64,000 nt of DNA. Source: an uncultured Acidimicrobiia bacterium (GTDB lineage Bacteria; Actinomycetota; Acidimicrobiia; IMCC26256; JAENVU01). The stretch spans positions 970,935 to 1,034,934 of the forward strand of contig CAWKBF010000003.1 of the NCBI GenBank assembly GCA_963847815.1, read 5' to 3'. Below are positions 1 to 5,989 of the stretch, one piece after another. The translations under genes and the position numbers were made by a program. Every line of letters begins with the position of its first letter. The stretch's first letter is position 1. The notes under the pieces are model-generated. The model did no database searches. It had not been told where the DNA came from and saw only the letters and a list, made by a program, of their open reading frames with translations.

Positions 1-286
1 ACCGACGATGCGGTCGTCCTCGTCACCGCGTGCGGTGAGCATGATGACCGGTACCGGAGCCTCGGCGCGCAGCCGGCGGCACACCTCGATGCCGTCGATG
101 CCCGGAAGCATCAGGTCCAGGACCACCAGGTCGGGCCAGCGCGCTTCGGCGCTCGCCAGCGCGGACAGCGCCATCGGCCGCAGTCTGGACCGTCAGGCCT
201 TCGCGTTCCAAGTAGCGGACGACGACCTCACTCACGGTCTCGTCGTCCTCGACGACGAGGACATACGGCGCGGTGTCGGTCACCAT
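1..286 (-). CDS. OmpR-family response regulator, N-terminal receiver part (runs off window; apparent frameshift near 170)
   Basis: [30 protein letters not shown], then in another frame [23 protein letters not shown]...VIMLTARG; start overlaps the stop of the upstream membrane gene. Confidence 0.85.
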
Positions 287-1631
287 GGTGACCGTACTGC
301 CGCTTGGATGGCGATCGCGACCGCGGCCTGGCTGCACAACCACAGGCGGGTCCAACCGGTCTGCATCCGGGTCGTGACGATCGCGACGGTGGCCAGAAGC
401 ACCCAGGGGACGAACGGGATCCAGATGCGTTCCACCTCACCCTTGGACATGCCGCTGAAGTTGGCGAGCGCGACGACCAGGAGCGCTCCACCCACGAGCA
501 GCCAGACCCGCCGGTCACGCAACCGCGCCAGCCCGACGGCAGCTGCGGGTCCCACGGCGAGCGCGAATGCCCCGAGGTTGCCCACGACGAAGTACCAGTA
601 CGGACGTCTGCTCGCGACCCCCGCCCAGTACTGCGTGCGGGTCGCCGCCAGACCGTCGAGCCACCAGAAGCCTGCGGCGAGGAACGCGAGGAAGACCAGT
701 CCGGCTCCGAACGCGGCGACGACGAGAGGACGGAACCGACGTCGCGCGACGGCAACGACGGCCGGGATCACGGCGAGCAGCACCAGCCCGTAGGACAACA
801 TCGCGGCGGCGCCGAACAGGAGACCGCCGGCGAGTGCCAAGCCGTCGGAGCGCCGTCCTTCGGTCCCGGTGGCGAGCAGGACGAGCGTGATCGCCCAGGC
901 CGAGACGCCGGCGAAGAACGCGTCGCCGAGCTCCACCAGATCGCCGCAGGTGCGAGCACGAGGAACGGTGCCGCCGCGCGCGCCGCGGCTTCACCTGCGA
1001 CCTCGCGCACGGCAACCATCACAGCCGCGATCGACGCAGCTCCGCCCGCGAGCACGAGCGCGAGGTTCGCTCCGACACCACCGAGTCCCACCCGATCGAG
1101 CGTCCAGAGGACCAGCACCATGCCGGGCGGGTGGCCCTTGGTGTGGATGTTGTAGCCGGGGACCCGATCGGTGAACGTGCTCAGAAACGTGAACGGGTTT
1201 CCGACCTTCGGCACAGTGCGGATGTACTGGAGTCGAACGAGCGGATCGGTGAGGCCGCGCCAGCCGTCGTTGAGGCCCAACGCGATCGCCCAGACGATCG
1301 CGCTCGCCATCGCGACGACGAGCAGCAGCTCCCACCGCAGCACTCGGCTGAGCCGCGGTCCCCACCACGCGATGAGCGCGGCGACGGTGATCGGCACGAG
1401 AAGGATCTGACCGTCACGCGTGCGGTAGTCGCCGGCGAGCGGTGGCGCGTTGATGCGCAGTCGATCGCCGACGGCGATGACGTGGTCGCCCCACTTCGCC
1501 GCGATGAAGATGAGCGCGAACCATGCGCCGATGGCGATCAACGTTCGGGCGACGTCGTTCCGCGGGCTCGCCGTTGCAGCAACAGCGGCAGCATCTGCGT
1601 CGGCCGGCGGCGCGGGGATGGTGATCGTCAC
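280..1631 (-). CDS. Polytopic membrane protein, GT-C-like (polyprenyl-phosphate-sugar-dependent glycosyltransferase-like); frameshift near 936
   Basis: ORFs 768..1631 and 280..936 join into a multi-TM protein with an HTKGHPPG loop, APAAIW...DAFFA and SKGEVERIWIPF motifs. Confidence 0.65.
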
Positions 1632-1743
1632 CTGGCGAGGGTACCGACGCGAGCTCCCTCCCGGCGCGCGGCGCGGGCAGAGTTTCGCGGATCGTAAGCA
1701 GTAAACGCGTGCCTTTCGAACTACTCGTCGTTACCTTCGAACC

Positions 1744-2398
1744 ATGCTTGAAATCGGTGCTTTCGATGTCGTGCTCCCCGTGCTCGATGAAGCGCTCGCG
1801 CTGCCCGTCGTGCTCGCGGACCTGCCGGCCAATGCGATCCCGCTGGTGGTCGACAACGGTTCGACCGACGGATCGGCCGAGATCGCACGTGAGCTCGGCG
1901 CTCGGGTGGTGGTCGAGCCGCAGCGCGGCTTCGGCGCGGCGTGTTGGGCCGGAGCGCGAGCCGCGACCAGCGACGTCGTGTGTTTCATGGACTGCGACGG
2001 CTCGTTCCATGGTGGTGATCTTCTCGAGGTCGTCGCACCCGTGTTCGACGGTTCTGCCGACCTTGTGCTCGGTGCCCGTCGCGGCACGAAGGGGTGGCCG
2101 CTGCACGCACGGTGGGCGAACCGCGCGCTCGCCTTCGAGCTGCGGCGCCGAACCGGAGTTCGCTTCTCGGACCTCGGTCCCATGCCGCGCGATGCGACGT
2201 GAAGCTCTGCTCGATCTCGGTGTCACCGATCGCCGTTCGGGGTGGCCGCTCGAGATGGTGCTCCGTGCGGCCGATGCGGGTTGGCGGATCGAGGAGCGCC
2301 CGGTCAGCTACACGCCGCGCATCGGGCGTTCCAAGGTGACCGGAACTGTCGCCGGGACCATGCGGGCCGTTCACGACATGGCCGGCGTGCTCCGATGA
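1744..2398 (+). CDS. GT2 glycosyltransferase (Dol-P-Man/polyprenyl-P-sugar synthase-like); frameshift near 2185
   Basis: VVLPVLDEA, VVDNGSTDGS, RGFGAAC, MDCDGS (DxD), DLVLGAR; C-terminal GWPLEM...YTPRIGRSKVTG lies in ORF 1709..2398. Confidence 0.9.
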
Positions 2399-3057
2399 GT
2401 CACGCCTTCGACGCCACGCTGCTGGTGATCGCAAAGTCACCGTTCCCGGGCCGGGTGAAGACGCGTCTCTGCCCGCCGTGCAGTCCTGAGCAAGCCGCAG
2501 ACATCGCGTTGGCTGCCCTCGAAGACACGTTGGCGACCGTGGCCGCGGTGCCGGCCGCGCATCACGTCCTCGTGCTGGACGGACCGATCGGACCGTGGGT
2601 ACCTGCCGGGTTCGATGTCGTCCCGCAGGTCGAAGGAGATCTTGGTGTTCGGCTCGGCGCCGCGTTCGCCTCGGTTGCCGGTCCGGCGTTGCTCGTGGGG
2701 ATGGACACGCCCCAGCTCACGGTCGCGCAGCTGGTCGGCGCGCTGCACCACCTCGGCGATCCGAACCTCGAGGCCGTGCTGGGCCTGGCCACGGACGGCG
2801 GCTGGTGGTCCCTCGGCCTCTCCGGGCCGGTGCCGGGCATCTTCGATGGCGTTCCGGTCAGCTCGTCGGAGACGGGCGCGGCTCAGCTTGATCGCATGCG
2901 TCACCTGGGTCTGCGCACCCGGTTGCTCCCGGAGCTGTGCGACGTGGATCACTTCACCGACGCGCGCGTGGTCGCCGCCGACATCCCCTGGTCGAAGTTC
3001 GCGGCTGCCGTCGCGGTCGTCGAAGCCACGCTCGAGCTCGAGCCGAGGATGTCGTGA
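2395..3057 (+). CDS. DUF2064 / TIGR04282-type nucleotide-sugar transferase-like protein
   Basis: LLVIAKSPFPGRVKTRL, QVEGDLGVRL, LVGMDTP, ATDGGWW, DVD; ATGA overlap with GT2. Confidence 0.85.
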   Translation: MSHAFDATLLVIAKSPFPGRVKTRLCPPCSPEQAADIALAALEDTLATVAAVPAAHHVLVLDGPIGPWVPAGFDVVPQVEGDLGVRLGAAFASVAGPALLVGMDTPQLTVAQLVGALHHLGDPNLEAVLGLATDGGWWSLGLSGPVPGIFDGVPVSSSETGAAQLDRMRHLGLRTRLLPELCDVDHFTDARVVAADIPWSKFAAAVAVVEATLELEPRMS

Positions 3058-3635
3058 CCACCGTCATGCTGCGCTCGACTGCAGGGCGGGTCCTTCGCCT
3101 CGACGGTCAACGTTGGGTCGAGCCGGCCTCGCCCGCCGACGAGCGGCTTCTGAAGCTGGTGGAAGGCCCCGTGCTCGACGTCGGGTGCGGTCCGGGTCGG
3201 CACGTCCTCGCGCTCGCGCGTCGGGGAATCGTGACGCTCGGGATCGACGTGTCGCCCCCGGCGCTGGCGTTAGCGCGACGTGACGGCGCGCCGGTGCTCG
3301 AGCGTTCGATCTTCGACCCGGTCCCGGCGACCGGGCGGTGGGGAACCGCGCTGCTCCTTGACGGGAACCTCGGCATCGGTGGCTGTGTCACCACGTTGCT
3401 CGCCCGGGTGAGGCAGCTCCTACGACCGGGCGGGCGTCTGCTCGTCGAGCTCTCGGCGCCCGGCGAGGGCCCCGAGGTCGAGCACGTGCGGTTCGAGTCC
3501 GATGGCGTCGCGGGGCCGTGGTTCGCGTGGGCGCACGTCAGCATCGATTCGCTCGCCGGCGTCGCGCACGACGCGGGACTGGCAGTGCAGCGTGAGTGGT
3601 GCGACGACGACCGCTGGTTCGCGTGCCTCGCGTGA
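3054..3635 (+). CDS. Class I SAM-dependent methyltransferase
   Basis: VLDVGCGPGR motif I, GIDVS, LLLDGNLGIGG, LLRPGGRLLV; GTGA overlap. Confidence 0.88.
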   Translation: MTTVMLRSTAGRVLRLDGQRWVEPASPADERLLKLVEGPVLDVGCGPGRHVLALARRGIVTLGIDVSPPALALARRDGAPVLERSIFDPVPATGRWGTALLLDGNLGIGGCVTTLLARVRQLLRPGGRLLVELSAPGEGPEVEHVRFESDGVAGPWFAWAHVSIDSLAGVAHDAGLAVQREWCDDDRWFACLA

Positions 3636-4849
3636 AGTCGCTCCCAGACCTCTCGCAGCACCCTCCGTTTCGGGAGGGGACGTTCTCGAGCACGTTGCGC
3701 AGCGAGCGGGTCGCCGCGATCCTCGGGATCGCGCTCGGCGTCTCCTTCTCCATCTGCTTCGTGACCGGCCTGTACTCGCATCTCGCGCAACACCCGACGA
3801 GCTGGTTCGAGCTTCCAGCACGGCCCGCCGGTCTCTACCGCGTCACCCAGGGACTGCACATCGCCACCGGGATTGCCACGATCCCGATCCTGCTGGCCAA
3901 GCTCTGGGTGATCTACCCGAAGCTCTTCCGCTGGCCACCGTTCACGAACATCGCGAACGTCATCGAGCGCATATCCCTGTTCCCGCTCATCGCCGGCGGG
4001 CTGTTCATGCTCGGCAGCGGGCTGGCCAACATCAACCTCTGGTACCCGTGGAAGTTCAGCTTCGCGGTGACGCACTACTGGGTCGCGTGGATCACGATGG
4101 GGGCCCTCGTCGTCCACATCGGCGCGAAGCGGCTCATCACCCTCCGGGCGCTGCGTCCGAGCCGTTCGACCGAGACCGCACCCACCCCCGAGGCGGCCGA
4201 CTCTCCCGAGGTCGAGGACGCGCCTGAAGCCGAAGGGGTCCCGGTCGGCGCGGTCGCGGACCGCAGAGGATTCCTCGCGGGCGTCTTTGCGACGAGTGGG
4301 CTGCTGACGCTCTTCACGGTCGGGCAGACGTTCCGGCCCCTGGCCCCGCTGGCGCTGCTGTCACCGCGGCGCTCCGATGTGGGTCCGCAAGGGTTCCCGG
4401 TCAACCGGACGGCGCGCACCGCCGGAGTGCTCGAGTCGGCGCGCTCCGCGGACTACCGGCTGGTCGTCGACGGCAAGGTCTCGCGCGAGCTGTCGCTCAC
4501 GCTCGATGATCTCAAGGCGATGGATCAGCACTCGGCGGTCCTGCCGATCGCCTGCGTCGAAGGTTGGAGCTCGTCGCAGCACTGGACGGGAGTGCGAATG
4601 GTGGATCTGCTGCGCATGGCCGGCGCGGCGCCCGGTGCATCCGTGCGAGTGCACTCACTTCAGCCGCGTCGCAGCTACCGCACCTCGGACGTGAACCCGA
4701 CCCAGACCCACGATCAGGACACGTTGCTCGCACTGCGGGTCGGCGGCGAGGAGCTCGACATCGACCACGGCTATCCCGCTCGCCTGATCGGCCCGGACCG
4801 TCCCGGAGTCATGCAGACCAAGTGGGTCACACGGGTGGAGGTCCGATGA
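3632..4849 (+). CDS. Membrane-bound molybdopterin-dependent oxidoreductase (sulfite oxidase family) with an N-terminal cytochrome-b-like domain and an internal Tat motif
   Basis: Four His-containing TM segments, then DRRGFLAG plus a TM segment, then LPIACVEGWS, W-G-V, DHGYPARLI, QTKWV. Confidence 0.88.
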   Translation: MKSLPDLSQHPPFREGTFSSTLRSERVAAILGIALGVSFSICFVTGLYSHLAQHPTSWFELPARPAGLYRVTQGLHIATGIATIPILLAKLWVIYPKLFRWPPFTNIANVIERISLFPLIAGGLFMLGSGLANINLWYPWKFSFAVTHYWVAWITMGALVVHIGAKRLITLRALRPSRSTETAPTPEAADSPEVEDAPEAEGVPVGAVADRRGFLAGVFATSGLLTLFTVGQTFRPLAPLALLSPRRSDVGPQGFPVNRTARTAGVLESARSADYRLVVDGKVSRELSLTLDDLKAMDQHSAVLPIACVEGWSSSQHWTGVRMVDLLRMAGAAPGASVRVHSLQPRRSYRTSDVNPTQTHDQDTLLALRVGGEELDIDHGYPARLIGPDRPGVMQTKWVTRVEVR

Positions 4850-5319
4850 CGAGTCCCGCTCACACCGAGCCCGGAATCGAACCGGAGGAGTCCACCGGCG
4901 GCGCGCTCTTCTCGATCGGCGCGGCCATCGGGATAGGAGTCATGGCGTTCGGCGTGAAGGGCCTGCTGGACGCGGCGCCATCGACCGAGCCCACCCAGGT
5001 CGGGCTCAGCCTCATCGGTCTCGACCTCCTGCACGATGCGATCGTCGCGCCGATCGTGTGCCTGATCGGCCTGGTGTTGACGCGGTTCCTCCCTGACCGC
5101 GTGCGGATCCCCGTCCGCGCCGGACTCTTCGCCTCGGCGATCGTGGTCCTCGTCGGCTGGGCCACGCTGCGCGGCTACGGGCGAGACCAGGTGCCGGACA
5201 ACTCGACCGTCGATCCGTTGAACTACGGCACCGCGGTGCTCACCGTGCTGGCCGCGGTCTGGGTCGGAGTGGTCGCGTGGGTGGGGTCCGCGTGGTGGCT
5301 CGGTCGTCGCGCTGATTGA
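4846..5319 (+). CDS. Hypothetical four-TM membrane protein, last gene of the operon
   Basis: Hydrophobic segments, LLHDAIVAP and DNSTVDPLNY; ATGA overlap. Confidence 0.7.
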   Translation: MTSPAHTEPGIEPEESTGGALFSIGAAIGIGVMAFGVKGLLDAAPSTEPTQVGLSLIGLDLLHDAIVAPIVCLIGLVLTRFLPDRVRIPVRAGLFASAIVVLVGWATLRGYGRDQVPDNSTVDPLNYGTAVLTVLAAVWVGVVAWVGSAWWLGRRAD

Positions 5320-5366: not shown

Positions 5367-5398
5367 GCACCTCTGACCGCATGAACGGAGACACTCCT

Positions 5399-5989
5399 AT
5401 GACGAAGGTGATCGCGGACATCACGATGTCCCTCGACGGGTTCGTCACCGGTCCCGACCCGGATCTCGACCATGGGCTCGGACACGGCGGTGAGGCGCTC
5501 CACGAGTGGGTGTTCAGCAACGACGAGGTCGACGCGCAGGTGCTCGAGCACTCGACCAGCCGTTCAGGCGCCGTGGTCATGGGCCGTCGCCTCTTCGACA
5601 TCATCGACGGCCCGCACGGTTGGAGCGACGAGATGGGGTACGGCGCCACGCACGCGGGCAACCCCCCGTTCTTCGTCGTGACCCATGCCGAGCCCGCGTC
5701 CATCCGGCTCGCGCTCGACTTCTCCTTCGTCACCGACGGGCTCGCGGCGGCCATCCAGCGCGCACGGGACGTGGCCGGCACCAAGGATGTCGTCGTGATG
5801 GGCGGGGGAGATGTGATCCGCCAGTGCGTCGATGACGGCCTCGCCGACGAGCTGGTGCTGCACCTCGCGCCGATCATCCTCGGCGCGGGCACCCCGCTCT
5901 TCACCGGCGCGGCCCGTCGAGAGCTTCGCCAACGTGACGTCCGCGTCTCGGAGCATGCAACCCACATCACCTACGACGTCTCGACCTGA
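5399..5989 (+). CDS. Dihydrofolate reductase family (RibD C-terminal) protein
   Basis: ITMSLDGFV, VVMGRRLF, VMGGGD, ADELVLHLAPIILGAGTPLF; RBS GGAG upstream. Confidence 0.9.
   Translation: MTKVIADITMSLDGFVTGPDPDLDHGLGHGGEALHEWVFSNDEVDAQVLEHSTSRSGAVVMGRRLFDIIDGPHGWSDEMGYGATHAGNPPFFVVTHAEPASIRLALDFSFVTDGLAAAIQRARDVAGTKDVVVMGGGDVIRQCVDDGLADELVLHLAPIILGAGTPLFTGAARRELRQRDVRVSEHATHITYDVST

Follow-up and report, generated by a model that had tools for sequence, protein, structure and literature searches.

The sugar methylthioxylose (MTX) is found on the lipoarabinomannan of Mycobacterium tuberculosis beside its sulfoxide form, MSX (PMC8531672). MTX is derived from methylthioadenosine and is added outside the membrane by a glycosyltransferase of the GT-C type from a decaprenyl-phosphate donor (PMC11127046), and M. 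smegmatis too has the five-gene cluster dedicated to it (PMC5911930). Rv0539 is mtxS, which makes the lipid-linked donor (PMC12088412), and Rv0541c stood for a long time among the GT-C enzymes that had not been characterised (PMC3229680). Whether the modification exists outside lipoarabinomannan is still asked in print (PMC11127046). The biological role of methylthioxylose has been open since its discovery. Here we describe a locus at the beginning of a 64,000-nucleotide stretch of DNA (the window; G000:C3:970935-1034934) from an uncultured Acidimicrobiia bacterium, whose genome assembly is about 3.9 Mb in 3 contigs, with 69% G+C and 86% completeness, and we argue that this locus is likely a regulated, extended version of the actinobacterial MTX pathway. 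In the M. tuberculosis cluster MtxT is Rv0541c, Rv0540 is the DUF2064 protein, Rv0536 is GalE3 and Rv0535 is MTAP (methylthioadenosine phosphorylase); the route set out by Angala et al. in 2017 reportedly runs through MTAP, nucleotidyl transfer, 3-epimerisation, MtxS and MtxT.

Beyond MTX, the closest described systems are membrane-anchored molybdenum proteins and other lipid-linked sugar systems. Sco3746 crosses the membrane with five helices, in which three histidines are conserved, and has a twin-arginine motif right before helix 5; reporter fusions showed that export of the part after helix 5 depends on the twin-arginine translocation (Tat) pathway, and the protein is inserted jointly by Sec and Tat (Tooke et al., 2017, eLife, PMC5449189). 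The M. tuberculosis protein Rv0218 has been described as having this architecture too (PMC5800017). MsrPQ (YedYZ) of E. coli is a distant, split homologue of Sco3746 that repairs protein methionine sulfoxide (PMC5449189). The three-component PpgS/Rv3779- and ArnC/ArnT-type systems for lipid-linked side-chain sugars also use a GT2 enzyme to load polyprenyl phosphate and a GT-C enzyme for transfer outside the membrane, but they start from hexose derivatives of uridine diphosphate (UDP) or from phosphoribosyl pyrophosphate (PRPP) and, in the available parts of the source, involve neither DUF2064 nor a redox enzyme (PMC11127046).

The GT2, DUF2064, epimerase and GT-C genes of the present locus are gene kinds of the M. 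tuberculosis MTX cluster, and the two share the same logic, in that the donor sugar is carried on a lipid and transferred on the outer side of the membrane. The differences lie in the host and in what surrounds the core. The host is outside the mycolate-bearing group, and no MTAP is linked to the locus or found in the same genome; around the core, and in translational coupling with it, the locus adds a two-component system, a methyltransferase, a haem-molybdenum oxidoreductase and a small membrane protein. Because of the host's position, and because the closest relatives are Acidimicrobiia and Actinomycetota metagenome-assembled genomes, the acceptor is unlikely to be lipoarabinomannan. The features are as follows (negative coordinates lie before the window start):

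About -1630 to -2676, minus strand, outside the window: NAD-dependent epimerase of the short-chain dehydrogenase/reductase (SDR) type, GalE3-like (intact same-genus orthologue: PF01370, E 7.5e-47)
About -410 to -1630, minus strand, outside the window: histidine kinase (intact same-genus orthologue: HisKA, HATPase_c and HAMP)
1..286, minus strand, continuing to about -410 outside the window: start of an OmpR/PhoB-type response regulator (PF00072, E 2.2e-14; insertion at about 167)
1631->280, minus strand: MtxT-like GT-C, about 447 amino acids if read through (from predicted fold and JGI names; single-base deletion at about 925)
1683-1698, plus strand: operator-like 16-mer TTTCGCGGATCGTAAG in the divergent intergenic region, ending 45 nucleotides before the GT2 start codon
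1744-2398, plus strand: GT2 polyprenyl-phosphate sugar synthase, MtxS-like (PF00535, E 2e-19; single-base insertion at about 2185)
2395-3057, plus strand: DUF2064/TIGR04282 protein (PF09837, E 1.4e-22; TIGR04282, 128.8 bits, cut-off 134)
3054-3635, plus strand: cytoplasmic class I methyltransferase dependent on S-adenosylmethionine (matches to Methyltransf_25/11/23/12/31)
3632-4849, plus strand: Sco3746-type haem-molybdenum oxidoreductase (PF00174 Oxidored_molyb, E 9e-28; weak PF01292 match)
4846-5319, plus strand: small membrane protein with four hydrophobic stretches, judged by eye (no Pfam or NCBIfam match)

A sequence-only reading of this stretch had described five plus-strand genes with four-base overlaps, divergent from a polytopic membrane gene whose end overlaps the start of a regulator, and the sequence confirms this arrangement. 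The overlaps are ATGA at 2395-2398 (GT2/DUF2064), GTGA at 3054-3057 (DUF2064/methyltransferase), GTGA at 3632-3635 (methyltransferase/oxidoreductase) and ATGA at 4846-4849 (oxidoreductase/small membrane protein). On the other strand the TGA of the GT-C gene (282-280) overlaps the regulator start (ATG 286-284 or GTG 283-281), and just outside the window the epimerase start overlaps the kinase stop. The family labels given in that reading agree with Pfam and NCBIfam (PF00535, PF09837/TIGR04282, the methyltransferase families, PF00174 and PF00072).

Identity of the core genes

The GT-C protein has no match in Pfam or NCBIfam, and its identity is drawn from an intact 447-residue same-genus orthologue that is 86-88% identical to the two halves encoded in the window. 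A search with this orthologue returned 2609 relatives. Among the 120 that were listed, the only functional name is the JGI name 'methylthioxylose transferase', borne by 14 of them. An AlphaFold model of the orthologue (pLDDT 87, pTM 0.89) was compared with known structures by Foldseek, and ranks 1-22 and 24-26 were GT-C enzymes (AglB, AftA, STT3, Pmt4, ArnT, ALG12, AftB, Emb and PimE), with TM-scores on the query of 0.30-0.49; rank 23 was a GPI-transamidase chain. The fold check proposed for the membrane protein at 280-1631 therefore came out in favour of GT-C, and with it the earlier logic, in which polyprenyl phosphate is charged with a sugar by a GT2 enzyme before a GT-C enzyme transfers that sugar outside the membrane, holds.

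Gene order ties this core to mycobacteria. In the four Mycobacteriaceae-family genomes searched, the GT-C protein gave a single match, beside DUF2064, in each (4/4). One Mycolicibacterium locus (L030) carries a true MTAP (288.6 bits, above the cut-off) together with the epimerase, kinase, regulator, GT2, DUF2064, methyltransferase, oxidoreductase and GT-C genes. Although the mechanism proposed by the sequence-only reading was right, its statement that no product had been assigned to this multi-gene system was wrong: for the core, the methylthioxylose transferase names, the identity of Rv0539 as mtxS and the GT-C/decaprenyl-phosphate route amount to a characterised function of the orthologous cluster. 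The core is thus already characterised, while the extension around it (an OmpR-type two-component system with its motif, a methyltransferase and a Sco3746-type protein) is not described in the literature covered here, a statement on which the primary paper of Angala et al. (2017) may bear.

The remaining core proteins are less closely matched by curated models. The nearest NCBIfam models to GT2, which is intact in same-genus genomes, are the dolichyl-phosphate hexose transferases, AglJ, PpgS and TIGR04283, all below their cut-offs; TIGR04283 scores 45 for the N-terminal part of the window GT2 and 37 for the intact orthologue, against a cut-off of 182. PpgS thus stands among the weak matches of GT2 as ArnT does among the fold matches of GT-C. 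The DUF2064 protein has a weak match to the guanylyltransferase CofC (E 4e-4), and we infer that it is a sugar-1-phosphate nucleotidyltransferase like Rv0540. A literature search for 'DUF2064' found no paper. An arsenosugar or radical-SAM role was considered and rejected: the sequence-only reading had mentioned that TIGR04282 proteins elsewhere accompany such genes, and this association does not apply here, as the genome has no ArsS-type match (the best match to TIGR04167 scores 29 bits against a cut-off of 300 and lies about 390 kb from the locus).

Conservation of the gene set

One genome per species was scanned for relatives of the DUF2064 protein, and 30 loci from other genomes (39-58% identity) were collected, including Acidimicrobiia, Pseudonocardiales, Williamsia, Nocardia, Mycolicibacterium, Actinoplanes, Solirubrobacteraceae and others. 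A gene was counted when it lay within 9 kb of DUF2064 (tblastn, E <= 1e-5). Counts are given for all loci and for the subset of 20 with at least 5 kb on both sides:

GT2: 25/30 loci; 19/20 in the subset
Epimerase: 23/30; 19/20
Oxidoreductase: 22/30; 15/20
Methyltransferase: 21/30; 17/20
GT-C: 20-21/30; 15-16/20
Kinase (some matches may be paralogues): 18/30; 14/20
Regulator (some matches may be paralogues): 16/30; 12/20
Small membrane protein: 11/30; 6/20

The same gene set was found in 8 further loci from relatives of the window genome. In the 30 loci the genes stand in a different order from lineage to lineage, which speaks for selection on the gene set rather than inheritance of one arrangement, and the grouping is beyond chance. 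The link between the glycosylation genes and a two-component system, already noticed from the sequence, is real and conserved across related loci. Comparative genomics shows a functional tie between an MTX-type core and a two-component system with a promoter-proximal motif, a methyltransferase, a five-helix haem b/molybdenum protein and then the small membrane protein.

Co-occurrence of the oxidoreductase with DUF2064 was counted in two samples of genomes. The phylum sample comprised 150 genomes of at least 90% completeness, with DUF2064 called at E <= 1e-10 and oxidoreductase orthologues at E <= 1e-40, a cut-off at which there is a clean gap (the next genome's best match is 1e-22). DUF2064 is present in 38 of the 150 genomes and the oxidoreductase in 23, every one of which is DUF2064-positive (23/23); the two genes lie within 6 kb of each other in 18, at 11 kb in one and on different contigs in four. 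When four genomes flagged as unpublished (G038, G088, G140 and G166) are left out, the oxidoreductase genomes are still all DUF2064-positive (19/19), with the genes adjacent in 14. The family sample comprised 60 genomes from the family of Mycolicibacterium: DUF2064 is present in 22 and the oxidoreductase in 19, all of them among those 22 (19/19) and none among the 38 genomes without DUF2064 (0/38), and the oxidoreductase lies within 7 kb of DUF2064 in 14 of the 19. One genome of the phylum sample, G034, has two equally good haem-molybdenum genes on contigs C1 and C7, apart from DUF2064.

The haem-molybdenum oxidoreductase and a possible function

The oxidoreductase is laid out as four helices, a low-confidence cytoplasmic linker, a twin-arginine motif, a fifth helix and a molybdenum domain at the C-terminus; the model helices span residues 25-53, 68-98, 107-134, 144-174 and 211-233. 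In an alignment of 26 orthologues, H76, H148, H162, R211-R212 and C308 are invariant. All the marks of a Sco3746-type protein were found: five helices, an arginine pair directly before helix 5, histidines in the helices and a C-terminal molybdenum domain with its cysteine. The likeness to Sco3746 and Rv0218 is one of described architecture, as distinct from a comparison of the sequences themselves. Because the arginine pair before helix 5 is invariant and this architecture has been shown experimentally for Sco3746, the molybdenum domain is predicted to face outward, in keeping with the extracytoplasmic redox domain that the sequence-only reading had envisaged. The work on Sco3746 concerns membrane insertion and, in the portions available, assigns no physiological function (PMC5449189), whereas the window protein is tied to an MTX-type pathway by gene order and by co-occurrence across genomes.

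The molybdenum domain has fold matches to SorA, YedY/MsrP, SoxC and chicken sulfite oxidase (against 1xdq, E 1.8e-8 and TMt 0.48). In sulfite oxidase, a loop after the molybdenum-binding cysteine carries the sulfite-binding arginine. Profile alignment showed that this 13-residue loop (AGNRR in chicken sulfite oxidase) is missing from the oxidoreductase family, and the chain ends with the molybdenum domain, without a dimerisation domain; a classical sulfite oxidase was ruled out on these two grounds. With MsrPQ the protein shares a Tat-exported molybdenum domain of the sulfite-oxidase fold without a dimerisation domain, a membrane haem b feed and an adjoining two-component system, which in the case of MsrPQ is HprSR. 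It differs in that it is one fused chain, with a membrane part weakly like cytochrome b561 (PF01292, E 0.008) and not of the MsrQ type, and in that the proposed substrate, likewise a methyl sulfoxide, is a sugar instead of a protein. The protein is not a member of MsrP, since it falls far below the score required by the family model (see below) and its membrane part is fused; it may work like MsrP without being one.

The small membrane protein follows the oxidoreductase in 11/30 loci and in 7/8 of the loci from relatives of the window genome. H63, D64, P69, R80 and Y127 are invariant in 16 sequences; Pfam and NCBIfam gave no match, and the look-alikes in a protein atlas were unnamed actinobacterial clusters only. 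A complex prediction with the membrane part of the oxidoreductase scored 0.10 (mark 0.32), which speaks neither for nor against binding. The protein is possibly a partner of the haem-molybdenum protein.

Given the orthology to mycobacterial genes, the pathway would begin with a 5-methylthio-pentose 1-phosphate from methylthioadenosine, which the DUF2064 protein would activate to a nucleotide sugar and the SDR epimerase encoded upstream of the window would epimerise. The MtxS-like GT2 would move the sugar to polyprenyl phosphate and, after flipping, the MtxT-like GT-C would attach it to an envelope acceptor. The haem-molybdenum enzyme would then take electrons from the quinol pool and reduce the methylsulfoxide form (MSX) of the attached sugar to the thioether, and the surface sugar would act as a renewable oxidant sink in a set of genes that the two-component system switches on. 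We tentatively propose that the haem-molybdenum enzyme is an MSX reductase acting outside the membrane, much as MsrPQ acts on methionine sulfoxide, because MSX occurs beside MTX and because the enzyme appears to be outward-facing, quinol-fed and dependent on the pathway. Doubtful as yet is the broader idea that Sco3746/Rv0218-type proteins might in general be dedicated extracytoplasmic sugar-sulfoxide reductases, with MTX-type residues scavenging oxidants and being regenerated by quinol via the fused haem b under two-component and operator control. MsrA reportedly reduces the MTX sugar sulfoxide, to go by the title alone of one cited study. A literature search combining molybdenum and MTX terms, which did not cover Angala et al. 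(2017) and its supplements, found as the sole co-occurrence a stain for thin-layer chromatography.

If the proposed reductase function is right, the sugar would form a renewable, enzyme-recycled antioxidant coat. MTX decoration and an orphan molybdoenzyme family would then each have a function, and there would be an answer to the question of how any sulfoxide can be reduced on the outer side of the membrane. The pathway genes are spread across Actinomycetota, including lineages in which lipoarabinomannan is not expected, and in the sampled genomes the orphan, outward-facing haem-molybdenum family occurs only where DUF2064 is present, so that redox cycling of the sugar sulfur is a concrete candidate for its function. 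For further work the locus also offers a regulator and an operator-like motif.

Several points weigh against an MTX-type pathway joined to an MSX reductase. The MTX orthology is drawn from a database name, mycobacterial-family gene order and citing papers rather than from direct comparison with Rv0539, Rv0540, Rv0541c and Rv0536. The methyltransferase is not known to have a role in the published MTX route, so the sugar made here may be other than MTX. A second difficulty is where the sugar phosphate comes from: in this genome (86% complete) there is no match to MTAP (TIGR01694) or methylthioribose kinase (TIGR01767), and all that three same-genus genomes offer is an MTAP-like gene that is unlinked and scores 140-145 bits, below the cut-off of 274.85. 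The only gene of the PNP_UDP_1 family found in the genome (C1:336521-337213, minus strand) is closest to methylthioadenosine/S-adenosylhomocysteine (MTA/SAH) nucleosidase and to HpnG, the hopanoid-associated phosphorylase, under the cut-offs for both; it could feed methylthioribose into the pathway, given a kinase, for which the search of the genome was negative. As for the enzyme, its molybdenum domain stands, in sequence as in fold, at about the same distance from sulfite dehydrogenases as from YedY/MsrP, the NCBIfam MsrP model NF003767 gives it 37.2 bits against a cut-off of 207, and its sequence fixes neither the substrate nor the direction of catalysis. Because the genomes behind the co-occurrence counts are kin, they make up fewer independent cases than the numbers suggest; at least two of them are seemingly in both samples, with the same coordinates. 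The oxidoreductase is also missing from 15/38 (phylum) and 3/22 (family) DUF2064-positive genomes, so the pathway can run without it.

Three other explanations of the pathway and its enzyme were weighed. The locus might make and attach a different sugar. This could be a 5-substituted pentose that bears another methyl group or some other change, or a hexose of the kind handled by the PpgS/Rv3779 galactosamine system, and the methyltransferase and the molybdenum enzyme would then be tailoring steps. Such a product would account for a methyltransferase that is present in 21/30 loci yet is not known as one of the five gene kinds of the mycobacterial cluster (the number from PMC5911930), and it would fit both the lack of MTAP and methylthioribose kinase matches and the place of dolichyl-phosphate hexose transferases and PpgS as the nearest curated models to GT2, albeit all under cut-offs. 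We nevertheless consider it unlikely, since JGI names the family of this GT-C methylthioxylose transferase, a Mycolicibacterium has the methyltransferase-bearing form with a true MTAP beside the epimerase, and the known hexose systems do not include DUF2064.

The other two explanations accept the pathway and concern the enzyme. It could be a general extracytoplasmic repair or detoxification enzyme, acting on protein methionine sulfoxide, sulfite or another oxyanion and merely co-regulated with the sugar genes in an envelope-stress regulon. This is what the repair of protein methionine sulfoxide by MsrPQ, described as a distant split homologue (PMC5449189), would lead one to think, and the closeness of the molybdenum domain to sulfite dehydrogenases as well as YedY agrees with it, as does the oxidoreductase gene lying away from DUF2064 in 5/23 and 5/19 genomes of the two samples. 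Dependence on the pathway would not be expected of such an enzyme, yet no orthologue occurs in the 112 phylum and 38 family genomes without DUF2064, and the sulfite-binding loop after the molybdenum-binding cysteine is missing; a general role is in our view improbable. A reversed direction, in which the enzyme would oxidise the thioether sugar to the sulfoxide, or some other intermediate, and pass electrons to the respiratory chain, has the classical chemistry of sulfite-oxidase-fold enzymes on its side, along with the abundance of the sulfoxide form on lipoarabinomannan termini (PMC8531672). From general redox chemistry, however, the low-potential menaquinone of Actinobacteria should favour sulfoxide reduction, and MsrPQ, which comes closest among split systems that have a haem b partner in the membrane, is a reductase (PMC5449189), so that we regard oxidation as very unlikely. 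MSX reduction is to us the best reading of the enzyme.

Regulation, frameshifts and flanking genes

The operator-like 16-mer sits in a block that is invariant across 5 same-genus sequences. Allowing up to 4 mismatches, it was found in 16/38 related loci and in 1/38 reversed-sequence controls, and in 14 loci it lies 43-112 nucleotides upstream of the first biosynthetic gene on the same strand, even where DUF2064 replaces GT2 as the first gene. A genome-wide scan gave one copy in the window's own genome and one in the reversed-genome control, so the count in this single genome is not significant by itself, and it is the comparison across loci that carries weight. We infer that it is a candidate operator of the cluster's OmpR-type regulator. 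Four loci from Pseudonocardiales and Mycobacteriales (L013, L014, L016 and L017) are without the Acidimicrobiia-type 16-mer before GT2; there, by eye, paired GTCAG...CGTAAG-like repeats about 11 bases apart precede GT2, possibly a diverged site of the same regulator. A TACCTT hexamer stands 6 nucleotides before the GT2 start codon (window 1732-1746), which is ATG here and GTG in four aligned relatives, again by eye; an arrangement of this sort would suit a leaderless transcript, the operator-like motif then lying at about -61 to -46. In the kinase orthologue, four hydrophobic stretches separated by short loops can be made out by eye and HAMP is matched weakly ahead of HisKA, which suggests that the kinase senses within the membrane.

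Three genes of the cluster are broken in the assembly, namely the regulator, GT-C and GT2; the sequence-only reading had found one, in the membrane gene. All three are whole in same-genus genomes of 93-98% completeness. In a three-way DNA alignment with two same-genus genomes, only 3 non-triplet indels occur over 8 kb, and these are single bases specific to the window, at about 167, 925 and 2185; the defect at about 925, in the GT-C gene, is a G missing from a G run. Because there are only these three, all single-base and specific to the window, and because the assembly has 3 contigs yet a completeness of 86%, the frameshifts are very likely long-read or assembly errors, and the cluster is probably intact in the organism. 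That the cluster is instead decaying, with real frameshifts and regulator, GT-C and GT2 as pseudogenes, might be argued from three of eight genes being broken inside 2.4 kb and from no sequencing run being listed as containing window DNA. Decay is hard to square, however, with the lack of in-frame stops or larger lesions at the three broken genes, with the 83-93% protein identity to intact same-genus orthologues on either side of each break and with the few-contig genomes of the genus (56-80% completeness), in which the same cluster is frameshifted at other places and in different genes, and we hold it to be quite improbable. Frequent single-base indels seem to be present across the assembly (3 in 8 kb), and gene calls from this genome need caution. 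Some deposited proteins of 642-692 amino acids (P0013 and P0051) fuse a GT-C homologue to a response regulator (PF00072/PF00486); these are probably gene-calling run-throughs at the overlapping stop and start, or frameshifts in other long-read assemblies.

The whole window was scanned for Rfam families and for tRNAs, and neither scan gave a match. Directly after the cluster lies a gene with a RibD_C domain (dihydrofolate-reductase-like) at 5381-5989 on the plus strand; since it is not kept beside the cluster in same-genus loci, the end of the cluster is placed at 5319. On the other side, past the window start, the minus-strand genes run in the order regulator, kinase, epimerase, ABC ATPase and FtsX-type permease, the last two at about -2607 to -5400 and the permease apparently split over two frames. 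The ATPase/permease pair adjoins the cluster in 4/4 same-genus loci and in 3 more Acidimicrobiales loci, on differing sides, and may be a lineage-specific accessory, perhaps an exporter.

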